Shown piece after piece: positions 12,866-63,781 of a stretch of 64,000 nucleotides of DNA (the stretch's first letter is position 1; every line of letters begins with the position of its first letter). The notes beneath the pieces were generated by a model. It made no database searches. It saw nothing but the letters and a program-made list of their open reading frames with translations, and was not told where the DNA came from. This stretch comes from an uncultured virus (IMG/VR IMGVR_UViG_3300029305_001437) (Duplodnaviria; Heunggongvirae; Uroviricota; Caudoviricetes): the IMG/VR virus record IMGVR_UViG_3300029305_001437. One strand, given 5' to 3'. The position numbers and the translations under genes are program-made.

Positions 12866-12930
12866 AGGAGCCAACACAGCGAACCCGGACATACACTCCA
12901 TCATTAGGCTCCGCTCTATCAGCTCCATTC
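12866..12930 (+). repeat. Dispersed intergenic element, family A (divergent copy)
   Basis: AGGAGCCAA...GACATAC..CATCATT..ATCAGCTCCATT matches the copies at 19717 and 63705. Confidence 0.6.
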
Positions 12931-12950
12931 TGTTTGTAGGAGGTGGAAAC

Positions 12951-13472
12951 TTGAGTAAATATACCTTGTACCGGATATATTACGGCGACGACATCGTCTA
13001 CATAGGTAGGACGAAGCAACCGTTGCAGAACCGTATCCGTGGGCATCTGTTCGCAAAGCCGATGCACAGAACCATTGCTATCAGTCAGGTGTCGAAGATC
13101 GAATACGCAGAGTTCCAGACCGAAGCGGATATGAACCTGTACGAGATCTACTTCATACTGAAGGTGAAACCTCCGTTAAATGTCGATGATAAGACACGGG
13201 ACGAGCTGACGGTCAGCCTTCCGGATGTGGAGTGGAAACGGTGGAGGACGCACCTTTGGGAGAAATGGAAGGATGAGATCCTGCACCGGGAAACCGAGTA
13301 CGATAAGATGAAGCGAAGGTATCACGAGATACCGGAAGCCAAGAGCGTTCTGCGGTCGATGTATGAAATGGGAGAAATCGACGAGAGCGAACTACGGCGA
13401 GGTCTTAGGGAGCTCGACAAGGAACGCAACATCCTGTACGACAAGATGCGTGGCAATCCACAGCTTTGGTAA
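12951..13472 (+). CDS. GIY-YIG nuclease-domain protein
   Basis: TLYRIYYGDDIVYIGRT...R..GH...E...I...P.LN. Confidence 0.75.
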   Translation: MSKYTLYRIYYGDDIVYIGRTKQPLQNRIRGHLFAKPMHRTIAISQVSKIEYAEFQTEADMNLYEIYFILKVKPPLNVDDKTRDELTVSLPDVEWKRWRTHLWEKWKDEILHRETEYDKMKRRYHEIPEAKSVLRSMYEMGEIDESELRRGLRELDKERNILYDKMRGNPQLW

Positions 13473-13478
13473 GATGAA

Positions 13479-13518
13479 GAAGACGGAGACCGAGGGAACT
13501 CGATCTCCGTCTTTTGTT
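13479..13518. terminator. Hairpin terminator between convergent genes
   Basis: AAGACGGAGA.CGAG...CTCG.TCTCCGTCTTTT. Confidence 0.7.
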
Positions 13519-13521
13519 GCT

Positions 13522-14535
13522 TCAGGGGTTGAGCGTATGGTAAAGGGCATCAGATGCCTTCTCATTGGAGCACATGAACTGGATGTTCAGGCCACTGGGG
13601 GAGGAAATGTGGATGTTGCCGTATTTCATCACCGGGTACTGCCGATTGTTTGCATAACGGCGATCAGGAGAGCCGTCGTTGTTTGCGTATGCCCAGACCT
13701 GCTTCACCAGCTCGGAGTCCCGGGGGACGGGGCCGGTCTCCAAGAAGCCGATGGCAGTGATGTCGATCTTTGCTTCGTTGTAGTCGATGGCACCGAGCTT
13801 TCCCTTGTTGAATACGAGGATCCGATCGGGCATTATGGCGAAGCGGCAGTTTTGTAAGGTGAATACAACAGGCTTGATATTTGTCCGGAGATACCAAGGC
13901 AGCTTGCCTCCGGACTTGACCTTGACGGTCGAAACGGAGTGCTCGATGCCGGCGTTCGTCCGGGTATCCTGGGCCTTGGCGTTTGCGGTGATCTCCTGCA
14001 AGGACTGACTGGATGCAACGGCTCTCCAGGCGGCGGATAGCTTGTTCCATTTCGCTTGCTCTACATCGTCGAACTCGTGCTCAATGTAGTTGCGGCTCAG
14101 GATGAACAAGGCAGCACAGGCAGCGACGCAGATGTAGAAGAAGACCATACCGACTTGAGAGCTTAGGGCAGTCAGGATCACGGCAGCAATGCGGACGATG
14201 TTGGCGAACTTGATCTGCTTGAACAGCTCCTCGTAGGCTCCGGAACGCAGCTTGTCGATGTCAGCGGATTTGACCTGCTCGACATCGGTGTATCCTGCGT
14301 AGGGATCTACCGGCTCTACCTGTGCAGCAGTCCTGGAGGATCCTCTGTGTGGACCGTGTTCGTCTACATAGCTGATGCCGGTGCCGGGTAGGGACACCGT
14401 CTGGCGGGTGCGACCATCTGCTGTCTTGGTGATGGTGTAACCTTTGACGCCCCAGCTGTAACCGATACCCTTCGTACTCAGGTTTACCCTGAAACCTCCA
14501 CCGAGCCGTATGCTTTTCCTGTATCTAAAGCCCAT
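13522..14535 (-). CDS. DUF4236-domain membrane protein (moron)
   Basis: MGFRYRKSIRLGGGFRVNLS...LPGTGISY N-terminus, two TM segments, GGAGG RBS. Confidence 0.85.
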   Translation of the reverse strand: MGFRYRKSIRLGGGFRVNLSTKGIGYSWGVKGYTITKTADGRTRQTVSLPGTGISYVDEHGPHRGSSRTAAQVEPVDPYAGYTDVEQVKSADIDKLRSGAYEELFKQIKFANIVRIAAVILTALSSQVGMVFFYICVAACAALFILSRNYIEHEFDDVEQAKWNKLSAAWRAVASSQSLQEITANAKAQDTRTNAGIEHSVSTVKVKSGGKLPWYLRTNIKPVVFTLQNCRFAIMPDRILVFNKGKLGAIDYNEAKIDITAIGFLETGPVPRDSELVKQVWAYANNDGSPDRRYANNRQYPVMKYGNIHISSPSGLNIQFMCSNEKASDALYHTLNP

Positions 14536-14624
14536 AAGTATACCTCCGTATGGCTGGAATTGATAAGATTTATTGTACCAAGGCAGATTTTGGGTGTCAA
14601 CGAACATCTGGGTAACAGAAATTA

Positions 14625-14700
14625 CCGAATACAGCGTTTTCTGCGGATCTCAGCAATACTTACCTCATTCGGACATCGGCAATCAGCTCCAAACTGTTCG
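14625..14700 (+). repeat. Dispersed intergenic element, family A
   Basis: CCGAATACAGCG...AGCAATACTTACCTCATTCGG...CGGCAATCAGCTCC. Confidence 0.75.
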
Positions 14701-14815
14701 CTTACAGGACACATCTTGTCTGCAAGAAGGGCACGGATTTTGAAGTCGATCAGGTGCGTTTGGTAAACGGAAACGAGGACGGAGAAAAATATTTTCGGAA
14801 ATCACGAAATTACTA

Positions 14816-14843
14816 TTGACACCGGAGGTAGGTATGTTAAAGT
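14816..14843 (+). promoter_or_regulatory. Early-type promoter P2
   Basis: TTGACA-ccggaggtaggtatgt(16)-TAAAGT. Confidence 0.75.
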
Positions 14844-14888
14844 ATAGTTAAGGAAGAAATTCCAGACCAGTATTAGGAGGAACCCGCA

Positions 14889-17800: not shown

Positions 17801-19709
17801 AGAGAATGTTTCCACCAAGGGTTTACGCTTGAATGGGCGTTACCGCCTACGCAGGGGCAGGAGTGCCTGATCTACAAGGCGGAGCAGTTTAGAACGGACG
17901 ATACGATCATCTACATCCCGGATATGACCCTGAACAACATCACGGTGTTCTCGGTGCCGGTAGATGAAGATGTTGACTACACCCTGAACCGTTGCTATAC
18001 CGGTGCCGATTTTGTTGAGCTCTGTGAGGGCGACGAAGCTCTTGCCTACCGGTTGTTCTGTTACTGCGACTGGCAGCATCCCAGTTCTGCGTTCCCCGAA
18101 GTCGATTATGACGACGAGGAGGACAAGGCGTGGGTGAAGCAAGCCTACGAGACTGCAAAGAAAGAAGGTAGAGTGTATGTTAAAGCTCAGTGACCTGATC
18201 CAGCTTGAAAAGAAGGTGGACATCGACATCGGCAAGGCTCATTGGCAGGATACCGATGTGGAATTAGGTAGGATCCGCACCGTAGTTGAGATGGACGGGC
18301 GGTATTACCTCCGGGAGCTCACCGATGGAGAGATCACAGCGTTCTTTGAGGTTGCGGTAGACTGGAAGATCAACGCACAGAAGACGCAGTTTGCTTTCAC
18401 CCCTGATGATCGCCACATTTACTACTTCTGCACAGGCCAGAAGATCCGGTACTCAGTCCGGTGCCTGGATTACGACCAGGTAAAGACCGGCGACACCTGT
18501 ACATACAACGGAATGACCGCTGAGTTCGTTCACGATGGCAAGATCAGGCTCAACGGCAAGGATATTCCGGTCCAGACTGACCCGAATTACACTTACAGCC
18601 TGCTGAAAAAGAAGATCAAAGCCATCGGCGGAGCCCGGGGGCTGTTTATCTTCCTTGACCAGATTGCAGAAGAAGCAACAACAGGTACGCTGCCGCTGTT
18701 CGAGGCGGTTTGGAAGAAAATTGCCGATCAATACGGCGTATAAGACTGGAGGTACAGTATGGCAAAGGAAATTCCGTTTGAAGGAGAAGCTGTTACCCGT
18801 TTTCGGGTGTACCCGACAGCAATGGACAACATCCTGTTCACATTCTGCGTCCTTGGCGAGAAGGAAAAGAGATGGTGGGAGAAGACTTTTGTTCCCGCCT
18901 GCCATAATGTGAAGCATTACTGGGAACTGGTGTCCAAGGGCAAGACCCTGTGCGTCATCGACAAGGCCACGGGGAACACACATCACATCGACAGCGAGAA
19001 TTTGATGCAGGGCATCCGGATGTGGATCGAAAGTGGTGAGGGGACGATCACAAATGGCTCAATCGACATCCGCTATGATGAAACCAGAGCCGATCACATC
19101 GTACAGTATGCGATTTTCGGGAGGGTTAAGTATGAGTTGGGTTAGATTACCTTGCTCCACCAAGGAAAACGACATCGGGAAGAAGAACTGCGACTGGGTC
19201 ATTGAGCAGGCGAGAGAGGTAAAGGCTCTGCTGTCCTATAATTCCGCACCTATGATCGCTGCGAACCGGGTTAGAGCCCTGTCTGCGATTGAAACAGCTA
19301 TGAGTTCCCTGCGGGATCTACAGGCGTACATCGAAAGCGTGTAGGAGGTAGCGTTTATGAAAGAATTTACCGTTAAGGTTGTCGCTCAGATGACCGGCTA
19401 TGCCCACATTGAAGCAGCAAGCGAAGATGAGGCTATCCGGAAGGCGAAGGAACTGTACGAGAACCGGGAAATGGACTGGTATGAAGAAAAACTCGCATCC
19501 TGTGAGGTGGAGGATTGAAAACAATGGTGAAGAAGGTTAAGGACTTCTTGTTGATGGTGCTGGCTACCCTGATAGCCCTGCCGTTCTTGATTATTGGATT
19601 TGTACGATGGCTCGTTCTTCCGTCGCCTGACGATTGCAAGGGCTGCCCGAAGGCAGGAGAAAACTGCGGCGACTGCAAGAGTCACCCAAGGAATTTTCCG
19701 GACTGGTAA
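14889..19709 (+). other. Operon of about 15 short hypothetical ORFs (14889-15263, 15385-15642, 15639-16025, 16038-16244, 16256-16444, 16447-16635, 16632-16976, 16973-17284, 17281-17796, 17783-18193, 18177-18743, 18759-19145, 19132-19344, 19357-19518, 19524-19709)
   Basis: Tightly packed ORFs with RBS. Confidence 0.8.
15265..15364 (+). repeat. Family B-like element followed by operator variant TTGCCAATCGGTAA (15351-15364)
   Basis: GGCACGAGG is shared with the 26670 copy; ends GCGGCAAACGCCC. Confidence 0.5.
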
Positions 19710-19716
19710 TGTCCGT

Positions 19717-19790
19717 AGGAGCCAAAACTGCGGATGCTGACATACCTACACTCATCCGGAACCCGGCAAATTGCTCCATCAGGCAATTCG
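19717..19790 (+). repeat. Dispersed intergenic element, family A
   Basis: CTGCGGAT...CATACCTACACTCATCCGGAACCCGGCAAATTGCTCCAT. Confidence 0.7.
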
Positions 19791-19853
19791 GGTTCCGTTT
19801 GTCAGCGAATACGAATACTTTTGAAAATATTTTGAAAAAATCCGTAATTCTTA

Positions 19854-19881
19854 TTGACTTAGGCGGTAGGTAAGTTAAGAT
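19854..19881 (+). promoter_or_regulatory. Early-type promoter P3
   Basis: TTGACT-taggcggtaggtaagt(16)-TAAGAT. Confidence 0.85.
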
Positions 19882-20963
19882 AAGTATGTAGATAAACCAC
19901 CCCGAATAACAAGGAGGAAACGAAATGGAACTGAAGCTCGTTGAAGCATTTGAGGTAGACGACAGAAAGGTTGACCGTTACGAGATCGGCGATTATGAAG
20001 TGATTGCCCGGACATATAGCTGGGGTTGTCGAGTAGAAGTTAGCACCGTGAACAGAGAAAGATATTTGCCTGACATCTACTGCAGAACCGACGGAGGTGA
20101 AATCGTCGGATTTAAGGTGCAGACCACATCCTACGGTACACTTCCGGTCGACGAGGTAAAGAAGGTCGTCGATGGACTGAACGAGGCAATCGAGGTTGTC
20201 GAGATCCTGACCAAGACCTTCGTTGGGAAGTAAGACTGGAGGTGTACAAGATGACCCTGAGTGGAATGAAGGCGATCCGGTACTTCTCTTGGATGAATGA
20301 TTTCCTCGATTTCACGGTGATCGTTCCAGAGAAGCAGGCGGACGAGGCAGCCGAGCTGATTAAGAAGGCTCTCGATATGTACTGGGACGATGAATACGAA
20401 ACCTACGGCGACGCAGTATACGGCGAACTCAACGGTGCTGGTATCCCGTTCTTTATGATCGGGCAGCCGTGGAACGATAAGAGCGATTGCCCGGACACGA
20501 GCGTAATGGACTACGAGAAGTGGCTGGATGAATTTGACGAGGGTGATGTCATCACCTTGCACAGCTGATAGGAGGAACTGAAATGAAAGCAATCCTGTAT
20601 GTGGATGACGGATACGGTGATTTCTACGAGATTGGCCAGTACCCGAATATGATCGCCGCTGAAAAGGCGATGTACCAGTCCTACGACGGCGGAAAGCACG
20701 AAGACCACCGGATTAAGTGGGATGGTAGGCTGTACCATTACCCGTCTTACAAGCTCTGCTTGTCCCCTTGCCGCAGATGCGGAGAAGAAGCCAGAGTCAA
20801 CGAAATGCAGCTGACCCACGACTGCCACGGGATCCCGTACCGGAGTGTATGCCCGAAGTGCTACGACCAAGTTCGGCGGATCGGATACGACGGTGTTAGG
20901 TACGGTGTTGGAGACGAGAACCTCGACTACGATTACTGATCGTAGTTTTTTGATAGCCAGGAG

Positions 20964-20977: not shown

Positions 20978-22896
20978 ACCGTAAGAATACAACGGAAACG
21001 AAAGGAAGGATCTGTATGGTTGAAAAGATCATCGAAAACTGGAGCAAGGCACAAAAGTCCGGTGCTTGGCTCCCTTGCCCTCGCTGCGGACTGCTGACAA
21101 TGAAGGAGGATCTTGACGACAACCCCGTCAGTCGCAGATGTGATGTTTATATCTGCGAGGAGTGCGGAACCCAGGAGGCGATCGAAGATATGCCTTATAG
21201 CGGCTGCCCCGAGGGCGAACTGAAAAAGCTTCCGTTCGAGGCGTGGTTCCTGAGTCGTAACATCTACCGCCAGTCCGGTATCGTCCGGAAAGGCAAAGGA
21301 TTTGAAGTGACCGCAACGCAGAATATCTTCCTGCGGGTGCAGGACATCGACGACATTATGGTCGGTGCATTGGAGGGCGGCATCAACTACTGGGCTGACT
21401 CCGCCGATGTGATCGAGGAGAAGCGAGTGGCCGATTGGGGTCACGAGCAGATTGCCCGGGGCGGTGTCCTGATGATCCACGACTTTGAAGATGATGTAAC
21501 CCACGAGTTGACCTTGGATAAATTCCTGACCGGTTTCAAACTTTGGGTGGAGCAGGGTCTTGACCACTACAACGCAGTCTGTGGTAAGACGGTGGACTGT
21601 TGCAAAATCGACGCAACCTGTGCTGACAATATCATTCAGCTCGCTCTGTTTGGGGAGGTAGTATATGGGTGAGTTGAAGGTACTGACCGTGCGTCAGCTT
21701 GCAGAGCATATCGCCAGCCAGATCAATCTGGAGGATGTGATGAAGACCGAGTTCCCGGCCTGCGACTTCGGCCTTATCGACACGGATGGCGAGACGGTAT
21801 TCGATCAGGAGGAGCTTGAGTTCCTGCACTCTGGCGTTTGTGGATGGTACGGCATCAAGAATGTCGATACCGGGTTTGACAGCTATGTGCTGGTACTGAT
21901 CGCTGATTATTACGGGGGCAGCTGTGCTGAACTGACCCAGATCTACGACGGCATTAGCTTGAAAGATGCCGAGAATGAGATCTGCCGCATAATCCTTAAC
22001 AGCTTAAAGCATCAGGAAGAAGCGGATGAGACGACGCTGATGGTGGTCGAATTTGGTGGAGGTAGTAAGTGATGGGATACATCGGAGGCGGAATGTACCA
22101 CGCAGAGCCTTGCCCGTTATGCGGCGAAACACTCTGGAACGGACGATGCGAAAACCCGGACTGCCACTACCATTGGCATCCGAAGGACGACGAGGAGGAA
22201 GATGATGAAAGTAACCCCGGAAAGCTACATCGAACCGATGATGACGATTGATGATGACAGCATATATGGTTTCTGCAATTCATTGAGTGCCATATATTAT
22301 CCGTTGAGAGTTGCGGGAATGGAGACGGCTGCTCGTCATTGCCTCCGGGCACAAGGCGTGATTACCCGGTTATACGAGGAAAATAAGGAGCTGAAACGCA
22401 AGCTCGATCAACTCAAGGAAAGCGAGGGAGAACCCAATGAAATTTGAAGTTAGCATCCATTACGAAGGCGTAGTCAAGGTGACTGTTGACGCAGAAAACG
22501 AATACAAGGCTCGAAAAGCCGCTGAGAAGAAGTTTGACGAGGTCTCTGCGGTTGAATTGGAAGCAAATCTCGAAAGCGTATCTGTGTGCGATGTCTCCGA
22601 AACTGAAGATGAGGAGGAAGAATAAGATGCAAGTTGCAACCGGTCATTATGTGAATGTTTTCGATGTGATGGGAGCTGATGTGCTCCTTATCCTGAACGA
22701 GCCGAACGGTGCACCGCTGCCCGAGGAGGTCGGGATGCTTGAAGCGGTGATGGCGGGGGCTATCAGGGGTCATGTAGGTGCCAACGGGCAGCAGATGGTA
22801 GCCATCCTCAATGAGGCGGTTGAGCATACCAAGTGCGAATGTATCGCCTATGGCTTCCAGATCATCGTTCGTTATTTGCCCCGCATCAGTGCGGCA

Positions 22897-22977
22897 GAAT
22901 ACAGCAATTTTCAGGATGAATAGCAATACCTACATCATTTGAAACCCGGCAAACAGTAGGAAACTGTTCGCCGACAG
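22897..22977 (+). repeat. Dispersed intergenic element, family A
   Basis: GAATACAGC...AGCAATACCTACATCATTTGAAACCCGGCAAA...AAACTGTTCGC. Confidence 0.75.
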
Positions 22978-24441
22978 AACAATATGTACGCAAGGAGGAT
23001 GCGTTAAGTGAAGGCAGAATTTCTCAGCATAGCTGATAAACGACGAATTGTACTGCTGTCAGCCAGTATCAAGGCGAAGCGGAAGCAGTACGACGAGCAG
23101 GAGTGGCACTTGGTCAGCGACCAGGTTCAGATCACCGTTAAGGATTTCGGCAGCCTCGGTATCGAAGTGAACGGAATGTACCAGAGCGGTAACTTGAGTG
23201 TCGATTTCTATGAGCAGATCAACGGCAACTGGAAGGTTTGCTGGAGGTTTATTCACAACTCCGGAAGCCGTGAGACCCTCGAAAGTGCCATTGAGCACAA
23301 CATCGACCTCCTGCTTTGCAAGAAGCACAAGGATGAGCTGAACCAGAAGCGTAGAAAGTACCGAAAGGGAAGGCCTATCAAGACCCTCGACGAGCTTGCC
23401 AATGAGGAGTTCGTATACCTGAACGACAAGATCACGCACTGGGGTTGGTTTATGAGCTGGCAGCTCAAGATGGCTCTGGATATGATCGCCCGTGGTGCAA
23501 TTTGCTACGCAATCCGGAAGGAGGACGACGAGGATGAATGAACCGAAGGTATACTTGGATGGCAACAAACTGATTTCGGAGACTTTGCACAACCGCCTCG
23601 TTTTTGAGGTGGTCGATGAGCCTCCCCTTGGTTTTGAGGTATGGAATATTGGGCCGAATGTGATACCCGGCTATCTCCCGTTCTGCAGACTCGCCAGAAA
23701 ACAGCCGTTTCCGGGCGGCAGAAACATCGAAGTCGATACGCTGAAGGCTATGAAATTCGATGGGGCCGAAAAAATCCTTAGAGCTGCCAGTTCTGGGAAA
23801 ACGGTGGAACAGATGGAGCAGTTCATCGAAAAGAACAGAACATCCAAGAGCGGAGATGTTCAGCACCGGATACGAATTTACGCCGATGCGATCCCGCTGA
23901 TGAAAAAGCTCGGCATAAGGAAGTGAGATAAGATGAAAGAAATTGATGATATGCCCCAGAACAGCTGTCCTTACACCGGAACAACATTTGCTTTCGAGTG
24001 TCCTTATTGCCACCACGGTGTATGTTCTGAAACATCGCCCTGCGGCGGCCCCACAGAAATTCATTGCTACGACGAGATGACAGACTTCACGGAGGAGCAT
24101 TTCGAGGCGGTTAATCGGAGAATGAAGATCCGGAAACTGGCAGCAGCCATCGAGGAGTATACCGAAAGCCTGTCTGTCAGGGATATTCACAGGGCGGACT
24201 TCGCAGATAAATTCGCTGCGTTCCTGCTCGATAAGGGAGTGGTTTGATATGGATGTCCGATACAGCGTTTATCGTGTGAAAGACGATGCACCGATCGTTA
24301 TATTCGGGACGATACCGCAGTGTGCGAAAGCACTCGGCCTCACAATCGACTCGTTTTACAGTCAGGCATCGAAACAGCGGAGCGGAAAGTATTCCGCAGG
24401 GAGCAAGCGGAAGTACCGCATAGTAAGAGAGGAGGCCGACG

Positions 24442-26666: not shown

Positions 26667-26669
26667 CAA

Positions 26670-28257: not shown

Positions 28258-28298
28258 ATGCAATTAAGACAAAAACAGACCCTTGTATTTTACATTTA

Positions 28299-28382
28299 AG
28301 TCTCTCGGGCGTTTTAGAACATCCTGATATACATATACCTTCGAGCGGATCTTTCCGCCAAACCCCGCCAAATGCCTCACAG
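28299..28382 (+). repeat. Dispersed intergenic element, family B
   Basis: AGTCTCTCGGGCGTTTTAGA...AAACCCCGCCAAATGCCTCAC. Confidence 0.7.
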
Positions 28383-28424
28383 TGAACCTGTCAACGAAAA
28401 CGAATAAAACGAAAAAAATTTCCG

Positions 28425-28499
28425 AAAATCCGAAAATAATACTTGACTTAGGCGGTAGGTGTTGTAAGATTAAGGTACAAATAAATTACCAACCGGTAA
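28425..28499 (+). promoter_or_regulatory. Early-type promoter P4 plus operator; near-identical copy of 7788-7862
   Basis: 73 of 75 bases identical; TTGACT 28443, TAAGAT 28465, TTACCAACCGGTAA 28486-28499. Confidence 0.9.
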
Positions 28500-32672: not shown

Positions 32673-34873
32673 ATGAACATCGAACAGTTTATGGAGTATT
32701 TGCACCAGAATTTCACGATCGACCGGGCGACGAGTAGCTTGATCCGAAACATCCTCGATTATGCCCGGACTTTCGTTGCGGAGGACCAGCAATACGAGTT
32801 CTTATGCAAGACCCTGGATGGAACGATCGGCCTGTCTGACCGAGAAATCCGGATGATCTGTTTGTAAGGGGGGCTGAATATGGAAAGACAGTGGAGACTG
32901 GATGATGACCTGATAACGAAGGACAACCTGCTTGACGGCATCACCTTCGACGATGTGATCCTGGCACTGCACACGGAACGGGTGATCGACCCCGCTTCTG
33001 CTGAACGGGTTCTCAAAGAAACCTTGGAGATCCGCCTGCAGGATATGAGGCACCTTTTCCAGAACAACATCGACCTGATAATCGCCAAAGCGAAAGAGGG
33101 TCGAGCAGAGTACGAAGGCCAGGGAGGTGAATGATCGTGCTGAAACCCGGCATTTACCACGCCAGCAATGACGAGAGCATCTGGAACGCATACGATGTAA
33201 AGATGGAGGTCAAGGAAACCGATAAGTCGTACATCTTCGAGCTGGTCAGTTTGGAGAGCCACTATGCGGCTGACCACATCAAGATGCTTTTCAAGAAGTC
33301 CAACCGCTTCGTTCTCCGGAAGGATCAGGGCGGTCACGCAATGCGGGTATGGGACGATACGCACTTCACGATCTACCCGTTCCAGGCCGGCATCCCGTAC
33401 TATTTCAAGATGGAGCCTGAAACAGACCGGTTCAAAAAGCTCTGCGATGATTTCAGCAAACGGAGACCCGTCGGAAAGCCTACCGGCAGATGTTTTTGGT
33501 TCACCACGGAGTTCACGAGCGGATCTCAGTCGCTCAACGACCTGCTCCGAAAGTATTTGATCGACCGTGGCTTCCAGTATTTGAATACCCTGAACGGTGA
33601 TGTATGGTTTCTGTTCCAGGGTGAATGGAGAATGTGCGAGTTCAAGTGTGATGGCAACAAAGTTGATGTCTATATGCTTGAGTTCGATCTCGGTTAGGAG
33701 GCAATATGAAAATTGCGTACAGACACAGCAGTACACCCGAAGCGGTGAAGATCCACGACACAGAAAAGTCACTGAAAGGCTGCGAAGGCTTTATCCGGTC
33801 GCTGGGTGGAGATCCCAAACAGGAAGACTGGGATAAGCGAGAGCTTGAGCGATTCCTAAGTGATGTAGCGAAGGGTGTTATCCTTGATTACTGGATTGTA
33901 GAAGGTGTGTACAGACCTGACTTGTCCCACCTGTGGAAGGAGTGCGAGGATGAAACATCCGTGTCTTGAATGTGGGCTCCGGTACAGTAGCTACTGTATG
34001 GGGTGCGAGAATAAGCCCTTCGGCATCGGACAGATACCGATCATAGAGCCTGCTCCCCGGAAGAATAAACGCAAAGATGCAAATAAGAATGGTCAAACTT
34101 GCACTTTTGCTGAGAAAGATTGTAAGTATAGTTAGAATAAAGAGGTAATGAAATGGCAAGAGGTCGTCAACAAAGATGGGTCTGTATGGACTGCAAGGGT
34201 GAGTTTTCGGTTCAAGGAAATACTCCCCGGCTTTGCTGTTCCTGCGGATCTGGCAATATTGGCAGAGCACCCAGCTATGAGCTTGCCGTTAATTTTGCGG
34301 AGAAACGAAAAGAACTGGGTGCCATCTGCCTGGAGCTGAACCCGGCCTACGAAAAGGCTATGGGATTGAAAGAGCAGTACGACAAGGTGATGGCGTACTG
34401 GAAGCAGCAGAGGAGTCGTGGATACATCACGGCAGAAGAATACGATGTCCTGGCATCCTGTTTTGTCGGATACAAGTCGAAAGATCGGCAGTAACACCCG
34501 AATACAGCGATTTCCACGGATCGTAGCAATACCTATATCATTCGGTAAATTTCCAGCGGCATAGGAGCTGGATTTTTATAGCAGACCAGTTACCAAACGG
34601 ATATGCTGGCAGAACACAACGGAAAGGTGGAAGCGATTGAACTATTACGAGATCTATTTGAGAGAAACCGGGAAGCTGGTGGCCAAGGGCACCGCACGGG
34701 AGTGCAGAAAGCAGCTTGGATGCTCCAGCCTTGACAGTTTCTATGCACTCGTCAACCGATCCATCCGAGGGATCAACAAGAAGTACCACGCAATTAAGAA
34801 AAAAGGTGGGGAAACGGACTACCCGGTACTGGGAGCCAATGACCCGATCCACAAACTCAAGGGAGGAACCTGA
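32673..34873 (+). other. Short hypothetical ORFs (32673-32867, 32880-33134, 33131-33697, 33706-33969, 34153-34494, 34637-34873)
   Basis: Operon-like packing. Confidence 0.7.
34498..34560 (+). repeat. Dispersed intergenic element, family A
   Basis: CCGAATACAGCGATTTCCACGGATCGTAGCAATACCTATATCATTCGG. Confidence 0.75.
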
Positions 34874-42234: not shown

Positions 42235-42277
42235 AAACGCCCAGGACTATGCAAAGCCCTGGGCGTCTGTTATTTTT
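42235..42277. terminator. Hairpin at the integrase 3' end, possibly bidirectional
   Basis: ACGCCCAGG...CCTGGGCGT followed by TTATTTTTT. Confidence 0.65.
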
Positions 42278-43991
42278 TGTAGGTGAATGAGTGCCTAATG
42301 CCGTTTTTGAATACGATCGCCGTGATCTTGCCGTCCGTAGCCTCGATGCTTTCGATGACGCTCTTGATGAAGCTCCTGGGGATGCTGGGATCTATTTGGC
42401 GGATGTATTTCTCATAGTCGACATAGGTGTCCTCCAACAGCTTGGAGACCATAATGAAATAGCTTGCCTTTTCGATGAACTCGTCGTCGGCAAGTGGGCC
42501 GTAGTTGTCCTCGTCCTCTTTGAACTCGCTCAGTTTCTGGTCGATCTCGTCGATGGCAGATAAGATCCGTTGCCGCTCGACGATGTAGTCCTTCTCGGCA
42601 AGGTTGCCTTCGCCGTACAGATAGAGCGACTTGAGCCGGTTCATCGCTACCTCGTGCTTCCGCTTCCGGGATAGCAGAGCATCCCGTTCGTTGACCGACT
42701 CGGATGTCTTGCTGAAGACGCCTGCAGGTCGATACTCCAGACCTGACACGCCGGTGAGCAGGAGGTCGTGCATTTGCTGCAGACCATCAGGGCAGATAGC
42801 TTCGACTTCGGAGAAGATCTCGCCACGGAGCAGCTTCTTCTCCAGACCCACAAGACCAGTCCGCTTTGTAACGGAGTCTTTGGCACGAATGATGTTCGCA
42901 ATGTAGTTGAACACGAATGGACCGACGACGATGTCGGAGATATACTTGTTTCGGCAGTCGATGTTACTGCTCCGTCGCCTGTTACAGCCGTAGATCGAAG
43001 GCCGCCAACCGTCTGCCCGGACACGGTCGAGCGTAGCACTCATATTGGAGCCGCAGCTTCCGCACCGGACGATGCCGGCGAAAATGTGGGTATTCTTCCG
43101 GACATAGCTTGTACCCTCGGCAACGCCACCACGCCTGTTCCGTTTCAGCAGGAACTGGATGCGGTCGAAAAGGACATCGTCAATGATGGGAGGATGGTGA
43201 TCCTCGTAGGTGATCCACTCGGACGCATCCCTGGCCTTGTACCCGCCGTCGCCTTGCTGTGTAACATTGTACCGGTAGTGCCCGATGTAAAATGGGTTCT
43301 TCAGGACTTTGCTGACAGAAGTGGGAGTCCAAGGCTTTCCGGAGCGGGTGAAGATCTCGTGCTCGTTCATGTACCGGGCAACATAGAGAAGGGACTGCTC
43401 CCGCTCGTATAGCTCGTAGATCCTGCGGACCACCTTAGCCTCGACGGAATCTGGCTCGAACACCTTGGTCAGCTTGTCGTATTTGTATCCGTATGGGATG
43501 CGTCCACCGTTCCATTGACCGTTCTCTGCACGGGACAGCATAACGGAGGTGACACGCTCACCGGTCATCTTCCGCTCCAGCTCCGCAAAAACGAGGATGA
43601 TCTTCTGCATTGCCTCGCCGATCGCTGTGCTGGTGTCCAGCTGCTCGTTCTTTGAAACGAAGGTAACGCCGAGACGCTTGAGCTCCTCGTACATACCGGC
43701 AAAGTCGAGAAGGTTTCTGCTGATGCGGTCGATCTTCCAGACCAGCAGGTGTGAGAACTCACCGGAACGCAATCGCTCCATCATCTCCTGATAGTCCGGG
43801 CGATCGGTGTTCTTTGCAGAGTAGCCTGCGTCCTCGAATACGAAATAGTCCTGGATACCAAGAACCATCTGTGCGTAGGCGATCAGCTCCCGCTTCTGTA
43901 CCTGAAGGGAGTCTTTGTCCACCTGCCAGTGGGTTGAAACACGAATGTAAATGGCAACCTTGAGTGCCCGTAATTTCTCAAGTACGCTCAA
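42270..43991 (-). CDS. Large serine recombinase (integrase)
   Basis: YIRVST...DAGYSA...RP...KIDRISRN resolvase domain, recombinase domain, CGSCG zinc ribbon and coiled coil; TTG start 8 nt after AAGGAGG. Confidence 0.95.
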   Translation of the reverse strand: MSVLEKLRALKVAIYIRVSTHWQVDKDSLQVQKRELIAYAQMVLGIQDYFVFEDAGYSAKNTDRPDYQEMMERLRSGEFSHLLVWKIDRISRNLLDFAGMYEELKRLGVTFVSKNEQLDTSTAIGEAMQKIILVFAELERKMTGERVTSVMLSRAENGQWNGGRIPYGYKYDKLTKVFEPDSVEAKVVRRIYELYEREQSLLYVARYMNEHEIFTRSGKPWTPTSVSKVLKNPFYIGHYRYNVTQQGDGGYKARDASEWITYEDHHPPIIDDVLFDRIQFLLKRNRRGGVAEGTSYVRKNTHIFAGIVRCGSCGSNMSATLDRVRADGWRPSIYGCNRRRSSNIDCRNKYISDIVVGPFVFNYIANIIRAKDSVTKRTGLVGLEKKLLRGEIFSEVEAICPDGLQQMHDLLLTGVSGLEYRPAGVFSKTSESVNERDALLSRKRKHEVAMNRLKSLYLYGEGNLAEKDYIVERQRILSAIDEIDQKLSEFKEDEDNYGPLADDEFIEKASYFIMVSKLLEDTYVDYEKYIRQIDPSIPRSFIKSVIESIEATDGKITAIVFKNGIRHSFTYKK

Positions 43992-44016
43992 TGGTAGTGC
44001 CTCCTTGCTTTTGATA

Positions 44017-44104
44017 GGATATTCCACGGAAATTCCACCGGACAATCCGTGGATTTTCCTGCCTTAACCGTAACCGTAACCTAACCGTAACCGTAATCAT
44101 ACCG
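44017..44104. repeat. Putative replication origin: four GGA-N3-TCC iterons plus TAACCG tandem repeats
   Basis: GGATATTCC, GGAAATTCC, GGACAATCC and GGATTTTCC at 11/12/11-bp spacing, then about six TAACC(G) units. Confidence 0.65.
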
Positions 44105-44977: not shown

Positions 44978-45017
44978 AGTCTGTACTCCTTTACCGTTGT
45001 TATATGGTTTAGATACC

Positions 45018-45105
45018 ATTGTATAAGTTTTTTGCCACTTTTGCAACAAAAATTACCGAAATCGGTAAAAAACTTATTGACATTTACCGACTGGTAAGTT
45101 AAGAT
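45018..45105. promoter_or_regulatory. Lysis-lysogeny switch: divergent promoters and operators
   Basis: Minus-strand TTGCAA-17-TACAAT (45046-45018); plus-strand TTGACA-17-TAAGAT (45077-45105); palindromes at 45053-45068 and 45084-45097. Confidence 0.85.
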
Positions 45106-45141
45106 ATACACGATGGTAATACCAACCACGAAACGAAAGGG

Positions 45142-45375
45142 GTGAACTCAATGAAACCACGCGAAATCAAAGGAGCCCGAGCAAGGCTTGGATATACGCA
45201 GCAGTTTATGGCGGACCAGCTTGAAATGAATTACCACTCGTACCGGAAGAAAGAGAGTGGCGAAGTTAGGTTCACCGAAGACGAGAAGATCGCAGTCGCT
45301 CGTATCCTGGAATTGACACCGGGGCAGATGAACGATTTTCTTTTTGATGGCAAATTACCAATCGGTAACGCATAG
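45142..45375 (+). CDS. Cro-like HTH regulator
   Basis: ARARLGYTQQFMADQLEMNYHSYRKKESGE. Confidence 0.88.
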   Translation: MNSMKPREIKGARARLGYTQQFMADQLEMNYHSYRKKESGEVRFTEDEKIAVARILELTPGQMNDFLFDGKLPIGNA

Positions 45376-49583: not shown

Positions 49584-50414
49584 ATGGCGTGGATAAGCGT
49601 ACACGAGAACATTGTCGGTGCAAAGCTACGGCAGTTCCGGAGTTTGATTGGCTGTTCGCAGTGGGAAGCCGAGGGTATCCTTGTTTCCCTGTGGTTATGG
49701 GGTCTCAACAATGCTGACAAGTACGGCTTGATCCCGTATGCCGACAGATCTGACATCGAGATCGCCCTGTCTGGATCCTCGAAAGGAAGTACGATTGACC
49801 TGCACAAGATCGTCGACTCGCTCGTACTGAGCGGATGGATCGACGAAGCTGATGACGGTATCTACATCCACGACTGGGAAGTCTGGCAGGAGCAGTGGTA
49901 CAAAGCCAAAGAACGCCGTGAAAAAGATACCCAAAGAAAGCGGGAAAATCGGAGCAAAGAGAAAGCACCTGCACTCCCGGTGGCAGAAGACGAGGTGGAA
50001 GCAAAGCCACCCGTCCTGCCTCCTGCGGAGCCTCCTAAGGTGGAAGTTCCGAAGGAACCGCCCCAAGGTCCGCCGGTTAACCCGAAGCGGAAAGCTACGA
50101 ATTACGGTCCGGAGTTCGATGAATTTTGGACCGTATATCCCAGAAAGGTCGGCAAAGGGGATGCTGCCAAGGCGTACCAAGCCCGTCGCAATGACGGCTG
50201 GTCAGCCGAGACCCTGCTGACTGCAGCAAAGAACTATGCACTCCAATGCAACAAGCAGCACACCGCACTGGAGTACATCAAGCACCCCAAGACATTCCTA
50301 AGTGTGAGCACCCCGTTTACGGACTATGTGCCCAAGCGGAAGGTCGCAGATCCTGAGCAGACAGTTCCGGATGGAAAGAACCCGTTTTCTGAATACGGAA
50401 AGGAGGGCTCTTAA
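49584..50414 (+). CDS. Replication initiator (replisome organiser)
   Basis: MAWI...LW.W...IHDW..Q N-domain and FDEFW..YPRKVGK..A...IKHP.TFL C-domain; precedes the DnaC-like gene. Confidence 0.85.
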   Translation: MAWISVHENIVGAKLRQFRSLIGCSQWEAEGILVSLWLWGLNNADKYGLIPYADRSDIEIALSGSSKGSTIDLHKIVDSLVLSGWIDEADDGIYIHDWEVWQEQWYKAKERREKDTQRKRENRSKEKAPALPVAEDEVEAKPPVLPPAEPPKVEVPKEPPQGPPVNPKRKATNYGPEFDEFWTVYPRKVGKGDAAKAYQARRNDGWSAETLLTAAKNYALQCNKQHTALEYIKHPKTFLSVSTPFTDYVPKRKVADPEQTVPDGKNPFSEYGKEGS

Positions 50415-54184: not shown

Positions 54185-54196
54185 TCGGAGGTAGCA

Positions 54197-54982: not shown

Positions 54983-54993
54983 AGGAGAGCAGT

Positions 54994-56163
54994 ATGACTA
55001 AGGATGTAAAGATCTTCGCCAAGACAATCGAAGACGAAGCCCGTGAGCAGATTGAAAGGCTTGCAGACCATCCGGTAAGTGATGGAAGCAAGATCCGGGT
55101 AATGCCTGATGTTCACGCTGGTGCAGGTTGCACCATTGGAACGACGATGACCATAACCGATAGGATCTGCCCGAACCTTGTAGGTGTAGACATCGGCTGC
55201 GGTATGCTGGCTGTGAGTCTGGGAGTAAAGAACATTGACTTTGCCAAGCTCGACAGCGTCATCCGATGGAATGTTCCTTCCGGCTTCAACATCCACCCGA
55301 CGGCGAAGGCGTTCTTCAATCTCGACGACTTGAAATGTCCGACTGCTGATAAAGTTCGGGCGATCCGGAGCCTTGGCACCTTGGGTGGAGGCAACCACTT
55401 CATAGAGGTGAACAGAGGCCGGGACGGATACCTCTGGCTCGTCATCCACTCCGGAAGCCGGCATCTCGGCCTGGAGGTAGCGGGATAATACCAGGATCTT
55501 GCGTGGAAGACGATGTCTCAGCCGGGACAGGAGGAGATGGCCGAGCTGATCGCACGGTACAAGGCAGAAGGCAGGCAGAAAGAAATCGCAGATGCCCTGG
55601 CTGCCCTGAAAGCCAAGAAACAGGACTGCGGACCCAAGGATCTGGCGTACCTGACCGGCGATGCAATGGCTGACTATCTGCACGATATGGGCATTGTCCA
55701 GCGATTTGCAGACAAGAACCGGATGACAATCGCCGAAGCCATCCTGAAAGGGCTTGGCCTTGGCTGGGGACGGTTTTTCACCACGACCCACAACTACATC
55801 GATTTGGAGGAAAAGATCCTGCGGAAGGGTGCTGTGGCATCCTACCGGGGTGAACAGCTCCTGATCCCGATGAATATGCGGGACGGCTCCCTTCTGTGTG
55901 AGGGCAAGGGCAATCCGGACTGGAACTGCTCGGCTCCCCACGGTGCAGGACGGCTGATGTCTCGGGCGAAGGCGAGGGACACGCTCACAATGGGCGAGTA
56001 CAAGGCGGCAATGGAGAAGGTTTATACCACCTGCGTCAGCTACGATACCATCGACGAGGCACCGGCGGCCTACAAGAAAATGAGCGAGATCATCGAGTGC
56101 ATTGAACCGACCTGCAAGATCGTAGATGTACTCAAGCCGGTATACAATTTCAAGGCATCCTAA
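54994..56163 (+). pseudogene. rtcB: RtcB-family RNA ligase interrupted by an in-frame TAA at 55486-55488
   Basis: MPDVHAG, VGVDIGCG, GTLGGGNHFIE and HSGSR precede the stop; HNY, RKGA, SAPHGAGR and DEAP.AYK follow it in the same frame. Confidence 0.88.
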
Positions 56164-56174
56164 GGAGGTCCATT

Positions 56175-56549
56175 ATGGGTAAGAACAAGAAAGGCAAGGG
56201 CGTATCAATCCCGAAAGGTAGAAATGGCTACCGTGAACGGGAGAAGACGAAGATCGACATCTTCCGGACGGCGGAGAAGGATACGCAGATCCAGTATATG
56301 ACGGATACTCTTGTCCTGACTCTGAATGACCCTGCTATAATGGGCAAGGATGTGTTCGGCAAGAAGCGGCTCCTGAAGATCATCGAAGCCTGGGGCAAAA
56401 AGTACGACGAGTTTCACGCAGTTTTTGAAAACAACGATGAGACCGACTACTACCAGATGAAGCTGGATAAATGCCTGAGGCAGATCTTCGGTGATGATAT
56501 GGAGAATTTTGGAGCGAGATACCCTTGGATTAAGGACCAGACATTCTAA
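56175..56549 (+). CDS. Hypothetical protein
   Basis: AAGGAGG RBS. Confidence 0.7.
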   Translation: MGKNKKGKGVSIPKGRNGYREREKTKIDIFRTAEKDTQIQYMTDTLVLTLNDPAIMGKDVFGKKRLLKIIEAWGKKYDEFHAVFENNDETDYYQMKLDKCLRQIFGDDMENFGARYPWIKDQTF

Positions 56550-56586
56550 TGCGGTGATGTAGAAAGCGAGGTGAAGGGCACCCATA

Positions 56587-57081
56587 ATGGAAACGGAAAA
56601 GTTGTTTGATGCTGACTCGGTCAAGGAATGGCTCGAAGACTATGTCCTGGCAGAGGAAGACATCGACGGTGAAATTGAGCGGCTCGAATACTTTGTATCC
56701 AAGATGACCAGCCTCGGCTCTCAGAATATGGATGGGATGCCCAGAGCCACAAACGCTTCCACAGACCGAATGGCCGAGATGCTTGCCCGGAAGGAGGAGC
56801 TTGAAGGATCTATCCGGGAGTCAGTCCGGAAGCAGGCAGAGGTCAGAAAGAAAATCGAGGCGGTTGTCCGGAAACTCCGGAAGGTAGAGCGAAGATCCGT
56901 GATCCGGTTGAAATACCTCGACCGTACTGAATGGGACGATGTGCTCGAAGTGATGTACGGCAAGAGGGATGACTTCGACGATAGGTACGATACATACCGT
57001 CGGGCGATGTACCGGCATCACGAGGACGCTCTTGCAGAAATGGCCAGGGTGATGAACCTAATGGCAACGCAGGAAGTTTGA
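56587..57081 (+). CDS. Late transcriptional activator, ArpU/RinA/DUF1492-like
   Basis: K.WL..Y...I..EIERLE...ERRSVIRLKYLD..EW...YR.H..AL; at the end of the replication operon. Confidence 0.7.
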   Translation: METEKLFDADSVKEWLEDYVLAEEDIDGEIERLEYFVSKMTSLGSQNMDGMPRATNASTDRMAEMLARKEELEGSIRESVRKQAEVRKKIEAVVRKLRKVERRSVIRLKYLDRTEWDDVLEVMYGKRDDFDDRYDTYRRAMYRHHEDALAEMARVMNLMATQEV

Positions 57082-57086
57082 AATAC

Positions 57087-57170
57087 CCGAATACAGCGGT
57101 TTCCAGACCAAGAAGCAATACCCTCTATCATCCGGATAATTTCTATCCGATCTATCAGCCAATTTTGTAG
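57087..57170 (+). repeat. Dispersed intergenic element, family A
   Basis: CCGAATACAGCGGTTTCCAG...GAAGCAATACCCTCTATCATCCGG...GCCAATTTTG. Confidence 0.75.
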
Positions 57171-57187
57171 GCGAAATCTTGTAAGAA

Positions 57188-57226
57188 AAGGAGCAGGCGA
57201 GGAGAAATACCTGGCCTGCTCTTTTG
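57188..57226. terminator. Hairpin terminator
   Basis: GAGCAGGC.AGG...CCTGGCCTGCTC-TTTT. Confidence 0.7.
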
Positions 57227-57281
57227 TAATCTCCGCCACCGTTGACTACGAAAAATATTTAGAAAAATCCTGAAAAAACTA

Positions 57282-57309
57282 TTGACTTAGGTGGTAGGTA
57301 AGTTAAGAT
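57282..57309 (+). promoter_or_regulatory. Early-type promoter P6
   Basis: TTGACT-taggtggtaggtaagt(16)-TAAGAT. Confidence 0.85.
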
Positions 57310-57387
57310 AAGATTGTAAAAACAAACAAAATTCGGTGAAAAACAGCCAGTTTTGCACCTGAAATGTTCGGAAAAAGGAGAACCGAA

Positions 57388-60523: not shown

Positions 60524-60526
60524 GAG

Positions 60527-62846: not shown

Positions 62847-62865
62847 CCGGCGACCGCCTTTCTTA

Positions 62866-62893
62866 TTGACTTTTCACGGTACTGTGATATAAT
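62866..62893 (+). promoter_or_regulatory. SigmaA promoter with extended -10
   Basis: TTGACT-16-TATAAT, with TG one base upstream of the -10. Confidence 0.8.
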
Positions 62894-62915
62894 AAAAGAA
62901 AAGGTGGTAGCACAG

Positions 62916-63170
62916 ATGCCGACAATTTCTCGATTTTATGGACTTATCATTCGCATGAACCTCCGCAGCCGGGAACATAATCCCCCTCATATCCACGCAG
63001 AATACGGGGAATATGAAGCCTTAATCGACCTGCGGGATTTATCGGTGGTCCGGGGCAAACTCCCAAATCGTGCCTTGGAAATGACCCTTGAGTGGACTTC
63101 CCAAAATCAGCAAAAACTGCTTGAAATGTGGGAAACCTCCCAAATCACAAAACTGCCCCCGCTCGTCTGA
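62916..63170 (+). CDS. DUF4160-domain protein (putative toxin)
   Basis: MPTISRFYGLII.M...EHNPPHIHAEYG...GKLP...W...LLEMW. Confidence 0.88.
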   Translation: MPTISRFYGLIIRMNLRSREHNPPHIHAEYGEYEALIDLRDLSVVRGKLPNRALEMTLEWTSQNQQKLLEMWETSQITKLPPLV

Positions 63171-63195
63171 GCGGGGCATCCGACAGGAGGAGCTT

Positions 63196-63651
63196 ATGGA
63201 AAACTTTGTCGAATATCCGATCAGGACGCTGACCTTGGTTAAGGACTACGAGGTGATCGCCCACTTCAAGAATGGCGATGTGAAGCGGTATGATTTCCGG
63301 AAGATCATCGACCAGCTGGAACCGCTGAGGATCTTGGCGGAAGACTACGAGCTGTTCCAGAAAATCCATCTGTCTGCCGGCGGATACAGCATCATCTGGA
63401 ACGACGACCTTGACCTCGAAGCTGAGGAGCTGTGGTACGAAGGTGAAGATGTTGACTCCCCGTTCCGGGATCTTATGGCTTTCCGTGATGCGGAAGAAAC
63501 CTGGGGCTTGAAACCGAGTGCCCTCCGGAAGGCTGTTCAGTACAAGCGGTTCACAGTCGGCGAAGATGTGATGCACTTCGGTAAGCAGTGGGTGATAACC
63601 AAGAAGGCTATGGTACGGGAATACGGCCCCGAACCCAGGCAAGCTGAATAA
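63196..63651 (+). CDS. DUF2442-domain plus C-terminal HTH protein (putative antitoxin)
   Basis: F.NG..K.YD...LF...GGY.I.WNDDLDL..EELW; A...WGL..S.LRKA...FGKQWVIT. Confidence 0.85.
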   Translation: MENFVEYPIRTLTLVKDYEVIAHFKNGDVKRYDFRKIIDQLEPLRILAEDYELFQKIHLSAGGYSIIWNDDLDLEAEELWYEGEDVDSPFRDLMAFRDAEETWGLKPSALRKAVQYKRFTVGEDVMHFGKQWVITKKAMVREYGPEPRQAE

Positions 63652-63654
63652 GAC

Positions 63655-63685
63655 GAGCGGCTCTCGAAAGAGGGCCGCTTTTTTA
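63655..63685 (+). terminator. Intrinsic terminator
   Basis: AGCGGCTCTC-gaaa-GAGGGCCGCT-TTTTT. Confidence 0.85.
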
Positions 63686-63704
63686 TGCCCAAATGTCCGA
63701 CTCA

Positions 63705-63781
63705 AGCCAATACCAGAACCCGAAGCAATACCCTACATCATTCGGCACCCGGCAATCAGCTCCATTTGCCAATTTTGCAGA
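63705..63781 (+). repeat. Dispersed intergenic element, family A
   Basis: GAAGCAATACCCTACATCATTCGGCACCCGGCAATCAGCTCCATTTGCCAATTTTG. Confidence 0.75.

Follow-up and report, generated by a model that had tools for sequence, protein, structure and literature searches.

What is a short sequence doing that recurs, always in the same orientation, at the junctions between the gene blocks of a phage genome? The question is raised by a 64,000-nt stretch of DNA (the window), which covers the first 64 kb of the IMG/VR record IMGVR_UViG_3300029305_001437 (68,423 bp, rated 63% complete; G000 in the following) and belongs to a Lachnospiraceae-type phage that is temperate according to the PHROGs and Pfam annotation of the window. 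It carries seven copies of an element of about 80 bp, referred to here as the family A box. The box is a real, selected and lineage-specific sequence, undescribed as a dispersed family, and we tentatively favour its interpretation as a portable regulator-binding DNA block of the kind recognized by Ltr proteins, late transcriptional regulators of Gram-positive phages, that would have been multiplied to seven junctions. Judging from the comparisons presented below, this interpretation is quite possible, if somewhat short of probable. Genes were taken from our own codon-usage calls and promoters are consensus matches with no mapped starts.

All seven boxes lie on the + strand and are found by nhmmer at 48–63 bits (self-hits), with the next best match in the window at 6.0 bits. 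In leave-one-out runs, a profile built from six copies recovered the seventh in all seven cases (22.3–45.3 bits, E-values from 5.5e-6 to 3.5e-13), whereas the best non-family match scored 5.2–8.0 bits and the best match in 20 Markov-shuffled windows 8.0–11.3 bits. There is no eighth copy in the remaining 4.4 kb of the record. An earlier inspection of the letters alone (the sequence-only reading) had placed seven + strand copies within 4–12 nt of our coordinates (Table 1) and had proposed a consensus that our own alignment matches. Its description of the element as non-palindromic and mosaic also holds: RNAalifold detected no consensus pairs among 20 distinct copies, and the 3' end comes in two variants, 'CCCGGCAATCAGCTCCA' and 'TTCCAGCGGTTTTAGGAGCC', and the 5' end in at least two.

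According to the information profile, the conserved part is primary sequence that extends over ~75 nt and contains direct repeats, words of the AGCG/CAGCGG type at profile positions ~17, 26 and 66. The core that they surround, at the centre of the element, reads TAGCAATAC..TCATTCGG. When the 38 distinct copies from the window and its relatives were aligned, the CAGCG-type words were fixed at positions 15, 24 and 64 of the extracted element, CAGCG itself occurring at least twice in 18 copies and AATAC twice in 19.

The boxes are usually part of a recurrent module with the order stop codon, box, intrinsic terminator, sigma-A-type promoter. As had been noted before, they are intergenic or overlap a stop codon, and five of the seven begin between 33 nt inside and 1 nt past a + strand stop. 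A hairpin with a U-tract follows or overlaps copies 3, 5 and 6, and the same is true of copies in the related genomes G002, G003 and G005. The 3' part of box 3 forms the left arm of a hairpin (19757–19797, z -3.07) followed by GUUUGU, and that of box 5 is included in a terminator-like hairpin (34545–34579, z -2.57), followed by AUUUUUAU and, further downstream, by a gene for a 78-aa protein. Box 4 is followed by a hairpin that has no U-tract and then by the ribosome-binding site and GTG start codon of gene 23008–23541, and box 1 ends 14 nt before the TTG start of a gene for a GIY-YIG nuclease-domain protein.

The promoter of the module is either the promoter-like region before terS, which follows box 7, or a member of a family of six sigma-A-type consensus matches (D1) with TTGACT, a 16-nt spacer that includes TAGGnGGTAGGT, and TAAGAT, which are found at the heads of small-gene blocks. 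The sequence-only reading had put three copies 140–200 bp upstream of promoters with 16-bp spacers, and these distances are indeed obtained when counted from the box start to the -35 element (14621 to 14816, 19711 to 19854 and 57083 to 57282); from the box end, the -35 element is 116, 66 and 118 nt away for copies 2, 3 and 6, respectively. Box 2 is separated from the upstream + strand gene by gene 28 on the minus strand. A D1-like promoter lies no more than 200 nt downstream of 16 of the 38 distinct copies.

Two D1 promoters have a different neighbour. They lie, together with ~146 nt of upstream sequence, within a 233-nt repeat (7630–7862 and 28267–28499, 76% identical), which stands where other D1 promoters have a family A box. 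The -35 and -10 elements of D1 are also shared by the cro-side promoter at 45079–45108 (TTGACATTTACCGACTGGTAAGTTAAGAT), whose spacer carries a palindromic, operator-like TTACCGACTGGTAA in place of the TAGGnGGTAGGT of D1. Another regulator may have its site in the D1 spacer.

Analysis of the distribution of the box showed that it is confined to a small group of phages. A strict pattern retrieved four IMG/VR contigs, and scans of the full records revealed 1, 2, 3 and 2 copies, two of these records being near-duplicates. Five more IMG/VR records, with two to four copies each, were found via LtrB, the protein encoded just ahead of box 6 (see below). Two metagenome-assembled genomes (MAGs) carry the box, one labelled Candidatus Avilachnospira and the other Clostridiales. 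With a covariance model built on sequence alone, six copies were detected in the Avilachnospira-type MAG, which contains the prophage G005 (contigs including C2 and C67); these copies lie on two contigs syntenic with the window. The same model gave a single weak match in the other 150 genomes of that MAG's family. In a metagenome scan, 5 of 24 loci were true members. A loosened pattern gave at least 120 loci in genome contigs, and among the matches listed only two (L114 and L125, 80–84 bits) were members; the other 118 scored at most 13.8 bits and came mainly from one conserved chromosomal coding gene, and the two loci added by a second viral pattern (L150 and L157) were chance matches. Neither the box nor a 20-kb stretch of the window had a match in the GenBank collection of named phages, and full-text searches of the literature retrieved no description of such a dispersed element. 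In every record the copies are co-oriented on one strand. The sequence-only reading was right in proposing a polar cis-acting element at operon junctions, and this element recurs in related phages and matches no Rfam family.

The junctions occupied by the box are kept among phages whose proteins are only ~50–65% identical. Shared junctions are those that follow the DUF1492 gene (the gene for LtrB) and the GIY-YIG gene, those that precede terS and the dUTPase block, and that of copy 3, and positional orthologues usually have the same 5' version of the box. In seven modules that follow ltrB, mean pairwise identity was 0.68 for the box core and 0.69 for the D1 block, as compared with 0.37 for the intervening spacer and 0.44 for the 40 nt that precede the box. 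The box core is thus about as identical as the promoter and, therefore, constrained about as strongly. Judged from this pattern of identity, the box copies are under purifying selection.

Which protein, then, might read the box? LtrB is a candidate because its own gene, located after the replication genes, ends in one of the copies. This copy at the 3' end of ltrB is also the most constant one. In G005 the last 33 nt, and in G002 the last codons, of the LtrB gene are inside the box, and in G000, G002, G003 and G005 alike ltrB is followed by box, terminator and D1 promoter. In 9 of the 13 IMG/VR loci that were found via LtrB alignment (two of the nine being records already included in the comparison), the box starts no further than ~15 nt from the end of the LtrB match. 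The LtrB relatives in G002, G003 and G005 have 33–49% identity to the protein of the window, and its homologue in a Faecalibacterium phage is annotated as a sigma factor or regulator. Structure-based comparisons added nothing to the Pfam assignment. The AlphaFold model (pLDDT, the predicted local distance difference test score, of 89) had no Foldseek match at E ≤ 0.001, with extracytoplasmic function sigma factors only among the weak rows (E-values of 0.45–3.4), a wide search (VIA) was dominated by the N-terminal helical hairpin and was uninformative, and a profile search of PDB found nothing significant.

Work on late regulators of Gram-positive phages (Quiles-Puchalt et al., 2013; PMC3753634) assigns DUF1492 proteins to the LtrB class of these regulators, alongside RinA, ArpU, LtrA and LtrC, and describes an Ltr-binding block of direct repeats at or just past the 3' end of the ltr gene, upstream of the terminator of that gene and of the late promoter; the block was necessary and sufficient for specificity when joined to unrelated downstream DNA. 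According to a second paper (PMC13123087), Phi13 has four such repeats at the 3' end of its ltr gene, from -107 to -42, and the Alt repeats of TP901-1, as cited there, extend from -76 to -32 from the start site. The boxes resemble Ltr blocks in being blocks of ~60–80 bp that consist of imperfect direct repeats and are portable relative to the downstream DNA; box 6 shares their location at or just past the end of an activator gene, ahead of the terminator of that gene and a promoter, and the activator in question has the DUF1492 domain of the LtrB class.

What the comparisons show is the repeats, where they lie, how they are conserved, how the module is laid out and that no RNA fold is shared; that the box acts as DNA, that LtrB is its protein and that the effect is activation are inferences. 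A phage regulator, most probably the DUF1492 late activator LtrB, would bind the box, and occupancy of the boxes would couple the operon behind ltrB, the late region that begins with terS and several accessory operons to that one regulator. A late-activator block of this kind was not among the mechanisms suggested by the sequence-only reading, which are supported in part (see below). If the Ltr-type interpretation is correct, the known late switch, with its single block before terS, would extend to seven junctions, and the accessory cassettes of a large temperate gut phage, which comprise dozens of small unknown genes besides those for a methyltransferase, a MazF-like protein and a dUTPase, would be under the same switch as packaging and lysis. 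It would then be possible to predict directly at what time such 'dark' genes are expressed, and for uncultivated Lachnospiraceae phages the box-terminator-promoter module would constitute a regulatory part that is portable.

Several observations weigh against a classical Ltr arrangement. Ltr systems have one binding block, whereas here seven copies are dispersed, mostly before accessory operons and not before terS. In the 16 copies that have a D1-like promoter, the box core lies 92–181 nt from the -35 element, without helical phasing, whereas the published sites lie between -107 and -32 from the start; an unrecognized promoter may be located nearer to the box. The downstream promoters look strong by consensus, three of the six D1 promoters of the window (those with -35 elements at 7806, 28443 and 32607) have no box, and three of the seven boxes (those starting at 12857, 22891 and 34494) have no recognizable promoter before the next gene. 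The ltrB gene, with its adjoining box, is 6.9 kb away from terS, and G003 (94% complete) lacks a box ahead of terS, although the LtrB gene is present and the terS control region is the same. The TGTCA-type repeats of that region could be an alternative LtrB site. A strict scan for [AC]TGTCA clusters found none in G000. The association of the box with LtrB may reflect plain shared ancestry of syntenic phages, and five of the records with boxes had been retrieved by means of LtrB. Nor does co-orientation tell a DNA role from an RNA role, as 129 of the 136 genes are on one strand.

In G000, G002 and G005, a box lies ahead of the terS control region. The region itself is kept in four phages, the other three locations being ~12100–12340 in G002, 75162–75359 (minus strand) in G003 and ~50230–50400 (minus strand) on contig C67 of G005. 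The stem of the hairpin just ahead of terS varies between phages with the pairing kept (GCGTCGC/GCGGCGT versus GCACCGCC/GGCGGTGC). Since a terminator hairpin has been retained right before terS, the late operon seems to need some form of terminator bypass, which leads to the possibility that the box works as RNA. Located in the 3' untranslated stretch of a transcript, the unstructured repeats would be bound by a phage or host factor that alters the outcome at the next terminator; this could take the form of nut-like processive antitermination, local antitermination, Rho loading, or cleavage and stabilization of the RNA. Such a role would suit the five copies at stop codons, the U-tract hairpins at copies 3, 5 and 6 and in the three relatives, the co-orientation of the copies with transcription and their excess of C over G, and, with a conserved terminator just before terS, some antitermination is to be expected in this phage. 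Among the contigs of four sequencing runs that were compared with the window, one from an RNA library spans copy 4, although such contigs show neither strand nor ends and may be derived from DNA.

With no consensus pairs, there is neither covariation nor a conserved hairpin of the boxB kind. The helices that can be drawn by hand, CCGAAT/ATTCGG (inverted words internal to the box) and GCGAUUU/GGAUCGU, are no better than in shuffled sequences (68.8% versus 69.6% paired, covariation of 0.173 versus 0.178). In single-sequence folds, five of the seven window copies were no better than shuffles (z from -1.74 to +0.68), and the scores of the two exceptions are due to hairpins downstream of the conserved part; the overlap of a box with a terminator arm is not general. 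The boxes have more C than G (451 versus 321 over 20 copies, with C/G ratios of 1.0–2.3) on a strand that overall has more G than C, and the window copies fall between the 81st and the 99.96th percentile of C-G among 84-nt windows. A Rho utilization (rut) site would be a stretch of ~80 nt of RNA past a stop codon that is rich in C, poor in G and unstructured. A purely compositional Rho site would not be expected to keep its sequence across such divergent phages, nor does it fit the location of copies 2 and 7 behind terminators.

Two natural insertions bear on the same question. In G003, the box, the terminator and the D1 promoter come immediately after the GIY-YIG gene, whereas in G000 and G005 a minus-strand DUF4236 gene, absent in G003, has been inserted between the GIY-YIG gene and the box. 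In G000, this insert is a self-contained unit with a near-consensus promoter of its own, and the hairpin at 13480–13513 between the two genes has T-rich tails on both strands. Box 2, which the insert cuts off from any + strand gene upstream, has nevertheless remained one of the best-conserved copies (63 bits; 45 bits in the leave-one-out run). By contrast, the box that is separated from its promoter module by the GIY-YIG gene has decayed: no copy in G000 is weaker (22 bits), and in G003 (8.5 bits) and G001 (11.9 bits) it is all but lost. The GIY-YIG orthologues in G003, G001 and G005 are 61–62% identical to that of the window and are likewise flanked by boxes, of which the upstream one is degenerate. 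Furthermore, copies 2 and 7, which are both downstream of strong terminators (13480–13513 and 63655–63680), are among the best conserved. Although the facts are few, the insertions and copy 7 fit a DNA site that works with the downstream promoter better than a signal in the 3' untranslated region. It has to be set against this that in G005 no clear terminator separates the GIY-YIG gene from the insert, and the argument that box 2 is not transcribed from upstream is thus limited to G000. We regard an RNA role as unlikely, although the antitermination or RNA processing suggested by the sequence-only reading retains that much of a chance. Should the box act as RNA on the adjoining terminators, it would represent an antitermination signal of an undescribed kind.

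Alternatively, the boxes might serve a regulator different from LtrB, of phage or host origin, as global operators located at varying distances from the promoters of several operons, a mode of action that would resemble that of the KorB operators (see below). All the evidence for action at the DNA level (absence of a fold, the repeats, conservation and the two insertions) would apply equally, a long and unphased promoter distance suits action at a distance better than a classical Ltr activator, and the presence of LtrB in G003 without a box before terS would cease to be a problem. One potential partner is a family of ~78-aa proteins with the N-terminus NYYEIY..G.ARECR, encoded directly after boxes at five places in G000, G001, G003 and G005. 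However, this protein was matched in none of the other five box-bearing records, which are fragments (51–83% complete), and thus it is not a universal partner of the box. No other dedicated conserved regulator was found near the boxes with Pfam, PHROGs and NCBIfam, except for cI, cro and a YmfL-like protein, and the copy at the 3' end of ltrB is the most constant. On balance, a different regulator also appears unlikely. As for the 78-aa family itself, it has no Pfam match and only hypothetical viral clusters in Atlas; its members are encoded 45–130 nt 3' of a family A box at the five places, and the gene in the window was overlooked by the gene caller, which chose an over-long dUTPase open reading frame (ORF) instead.

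A further idea is that the boxes, unstructured and carrying repeats, are a new kind of multi-site polar signal in phages of Clostridia, located just ahead of inter-operon terminators, at which a phage factor, possibly LtrB, would be loaded so that polymerase reads through into the next cassette. This we consider distinctly unlikely. It would mean that the whole ~100-kb genome, including the accessory cassettes, is transcribed as a relay at one stage of infection, and that Ltr proteins in general need to be re-examined as terminator-bypass factors.

Another suggestion of the sequence-only reading, a recombination boundary, finds weak support in the mosaic flanks and is opposed by positional orthology and purifying selection. 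In this scenario, the boxes would be short homologies for cassette exchange or a selfish dispersed repeat, the remnant of a mobile element possibly linked to the GIY-YIG gene. Both ends of the box are mosaic, orthologous copies can differ in the 3' variant, and copy 5 has a closer counterpart in a non-orthologous copy of G003 (84% over 64 nt) than in the copy at the orthologous position. The GIY-YIG gene has a box on either side in G000, G003 and G005, the accessory region is highly mosaic, and one variant contig leaves the window sequence 13 nt past copy 4. However, the copies are found at conserved junctions with subfamily identity kept between genomes, and the core is conserved like a promoter next to a randomized spacer. 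None of the eight joints listed among contigs is at a box. There are no terminal inverted repeats of the integron attC type or of miniature inverted-repeat transposable elements (no consensus pairs), target-site duplications not having been formally searched. The family is also rare, being represented among the 151 genomes of the MAG's family by G005 and one weak match. A role in recombination is accordingly improbable.

That the box encodes a product, a small RNA or a short peptide, is hardly credible: short ORFs cover copies 2 (14560–14766) and 7 (63693–63845) and U-tract hairpins follow some copies, but reading frames differ between copies, 1-nt indels shift them and every frame is stopped in some copy of the alignment, and the structured or small-RNA family of the sequence-only reading finds no support either, with helices no better than shuffles, no promoter of its own at any copy, and nothing at any box in an Rfam cmscan of the whole window (E ≤ 1), which matched RT-2 only.

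Comparison with motifs of other kinds gave several partial likenesses that were dismissed. On the reverse strand, the box shares GTAGGTATTG with the D1 spacer, which brought to mind an antisense promoter; as judged by eye, its -10 is not conserved among copies, and the 10-mer is near chance expectation. Words for sigma-54, CcpA, CodY, LexA, Fur and IHF, also compared by eye, did not fit. One 3' variant contains 'GTTTTAG', as in a solitary repeat of the clustered regularly interspaced short palindromic repeat (CRISPR) type, but there is neither an array nor a hairpin, and similarity to the cI operator half-site TTACCGA is limited to 4–8 nt in two copies.

Dispersed sites are known from other systems. 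The nut sites of lambda, two in number, consist of boxA and boxB and mediate processive antitermination. Like them, the family A boxes are polar, co-oriented, located after genes and before terminators, and present more than once per genome, in a phage with a terminator-guarded late operon. Unlike them, the boxes have no conserved hairpin or recognized boxA-like word, number seven and in two cases lie behind a strong terminator; neither an N-like nor a Q-like protein was recognized in the phage. IncP plasmids have multiple KorB operators, palindromes of 13 bp to which a ParB-family protein binds. They have in common with the boxes that one sequence is repeated 5' of many operon promoters at variable distance, for the coordinate control of a mobile genome; the boxes, however, are non-palindromic repeat blocks of 80 bp and no ParB-like gene was seen. 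Finally, lambdoid and dairy phages have boundary or linker sequences between modules. The boxes resemble these as short conserved stretches at the junctions of gene blocks in mosaic genomes and differ from them in internal repeats, strict polarity, fixed terminator and promoter partners and promoter-level conservation. Whether it acts as DNA or as RNA, the box provides a clean and testable marker for a small lineage of phages.

Table 1. Features of the window, with positions counted from its first letter. Genomes other than G000 are named where positions refer to them.
Feature	Position	Strand	Remarks
Box 1	12857..12937	+	nhmmer 52 bits; leave-one-out 22.3 bits, weakest copy; 'TAGGAGCC' 5' subfamily
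Box 2	14621..14700	+	63 bits; leave-one-out 45.3 bits
Box 3	19711..19788	+	'TAGGAGCC' subfamily; begins 1 nt past stop of gene 19515-19709
Box 4	22891..22970	+	Covers last 33 nt of gene 22486-22923
Box 5	34494..34575	+	Begins at stop codon of gene 34153-34494
Box 6	57083..57164	+	Begins 1 nt past stop of DUF1492 (LtrB-family) gene
Box 7	63693..63774	+	3' of strong terminator 63655-63680; ~100 nt 5' of conserved promoter-like region before terS (63981)
DUF1492/LtrB-family late activator gene	56587..57081	+	164 aa; Pfam PF07374, 29.2 bits (cut-off 21.5); phrog_36 transcriptional regulator
Terminator-like hairpin and U-tract after box 6	57187..57231	+	-30.8 kcal/mol, z -3.79; hairpin 57187-57225, then UUUUGU; D1 -35 at 57282
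D1 promoter family, 67-nt copies	7776, 14786, 19824, 28413, 32577, 57252		Consensus match
D1 promoter after box 2	14786..14852	+	A/T-rich upstream stretch, TTGACA, 16-nt spacer, TAAAGT; consensus match
D1 promoter after box 3	19824..19890	+	TTGACT, 16-nt spacer, TAAGAT; consensus match
D1 promoter after box 6 and terminator	57252..57318	+	TTGACT, 16-nt spacer, TAAGAT; consensus match
GIY-YIG nuclease-domain gene	12951..13472	+	Pfam PF01541, 27.6 bits (cut-off 22.6); between boxes 1 and 2
Inserted unit	13480..14600	-	DUF4236 gene 13522-14535; promoter 14600-14572 (TTGACA, 17-nt spacer, TACAAT, with TG); hairpin 13480-13513
Late control region before terS	63790..63952	+	TGTCA-type repeats; promoter-like TGTATAAC; conserved GGGGACAGGAAAT; terminator hairpin 63927-63952 just 5' of terS ribosome-binding site
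78-aa family gene	34637-34873	+	Other members: G003 17-250, 903-1061; G001 4482-4715, 5344-5526; G005 C2 20090-20314, C67 1876-2013
Reverse transcriptase of diversity-generating retroelement (DGR)	1367-2608
Endolysin	4288-6084
Serine integrase, large	42270-44045	-
Early block: RecT, DnaD-like, DnaC-like, RusA, SSB, RtcB	47-56 kb
Terminase genes (terS first)	from 63981

Apart from the genes listed in Table 1, the window includes cI-like and cro-like genes (PHROGs and Pfam) and ~34 kb of small genes, mainly of unknown function, between the lysis genes and the integrase; there are no tRNAs in the window. The intergenic region between cI and cro (44978–45150) contains two operator-like palindromes, TTACCGAAATCGGTAA and the TTACCGACTGGTAA of the cro-side promoter. 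The RT-2 RNA (RF03077) at 1088–1354 on the + strand, with 66.5 bits against a gathering score of 40, is located directly 5' of the DGR-type reverse transcriptase gene. The RtcB RNA ligase is represented in the window by two ORFs, 54994–55488 and 55513–56163, which match positions 1–84 and 206–425 of the Pfam RtcB family, whereas in G002 a single ORF (4298–5470) matches both halves.

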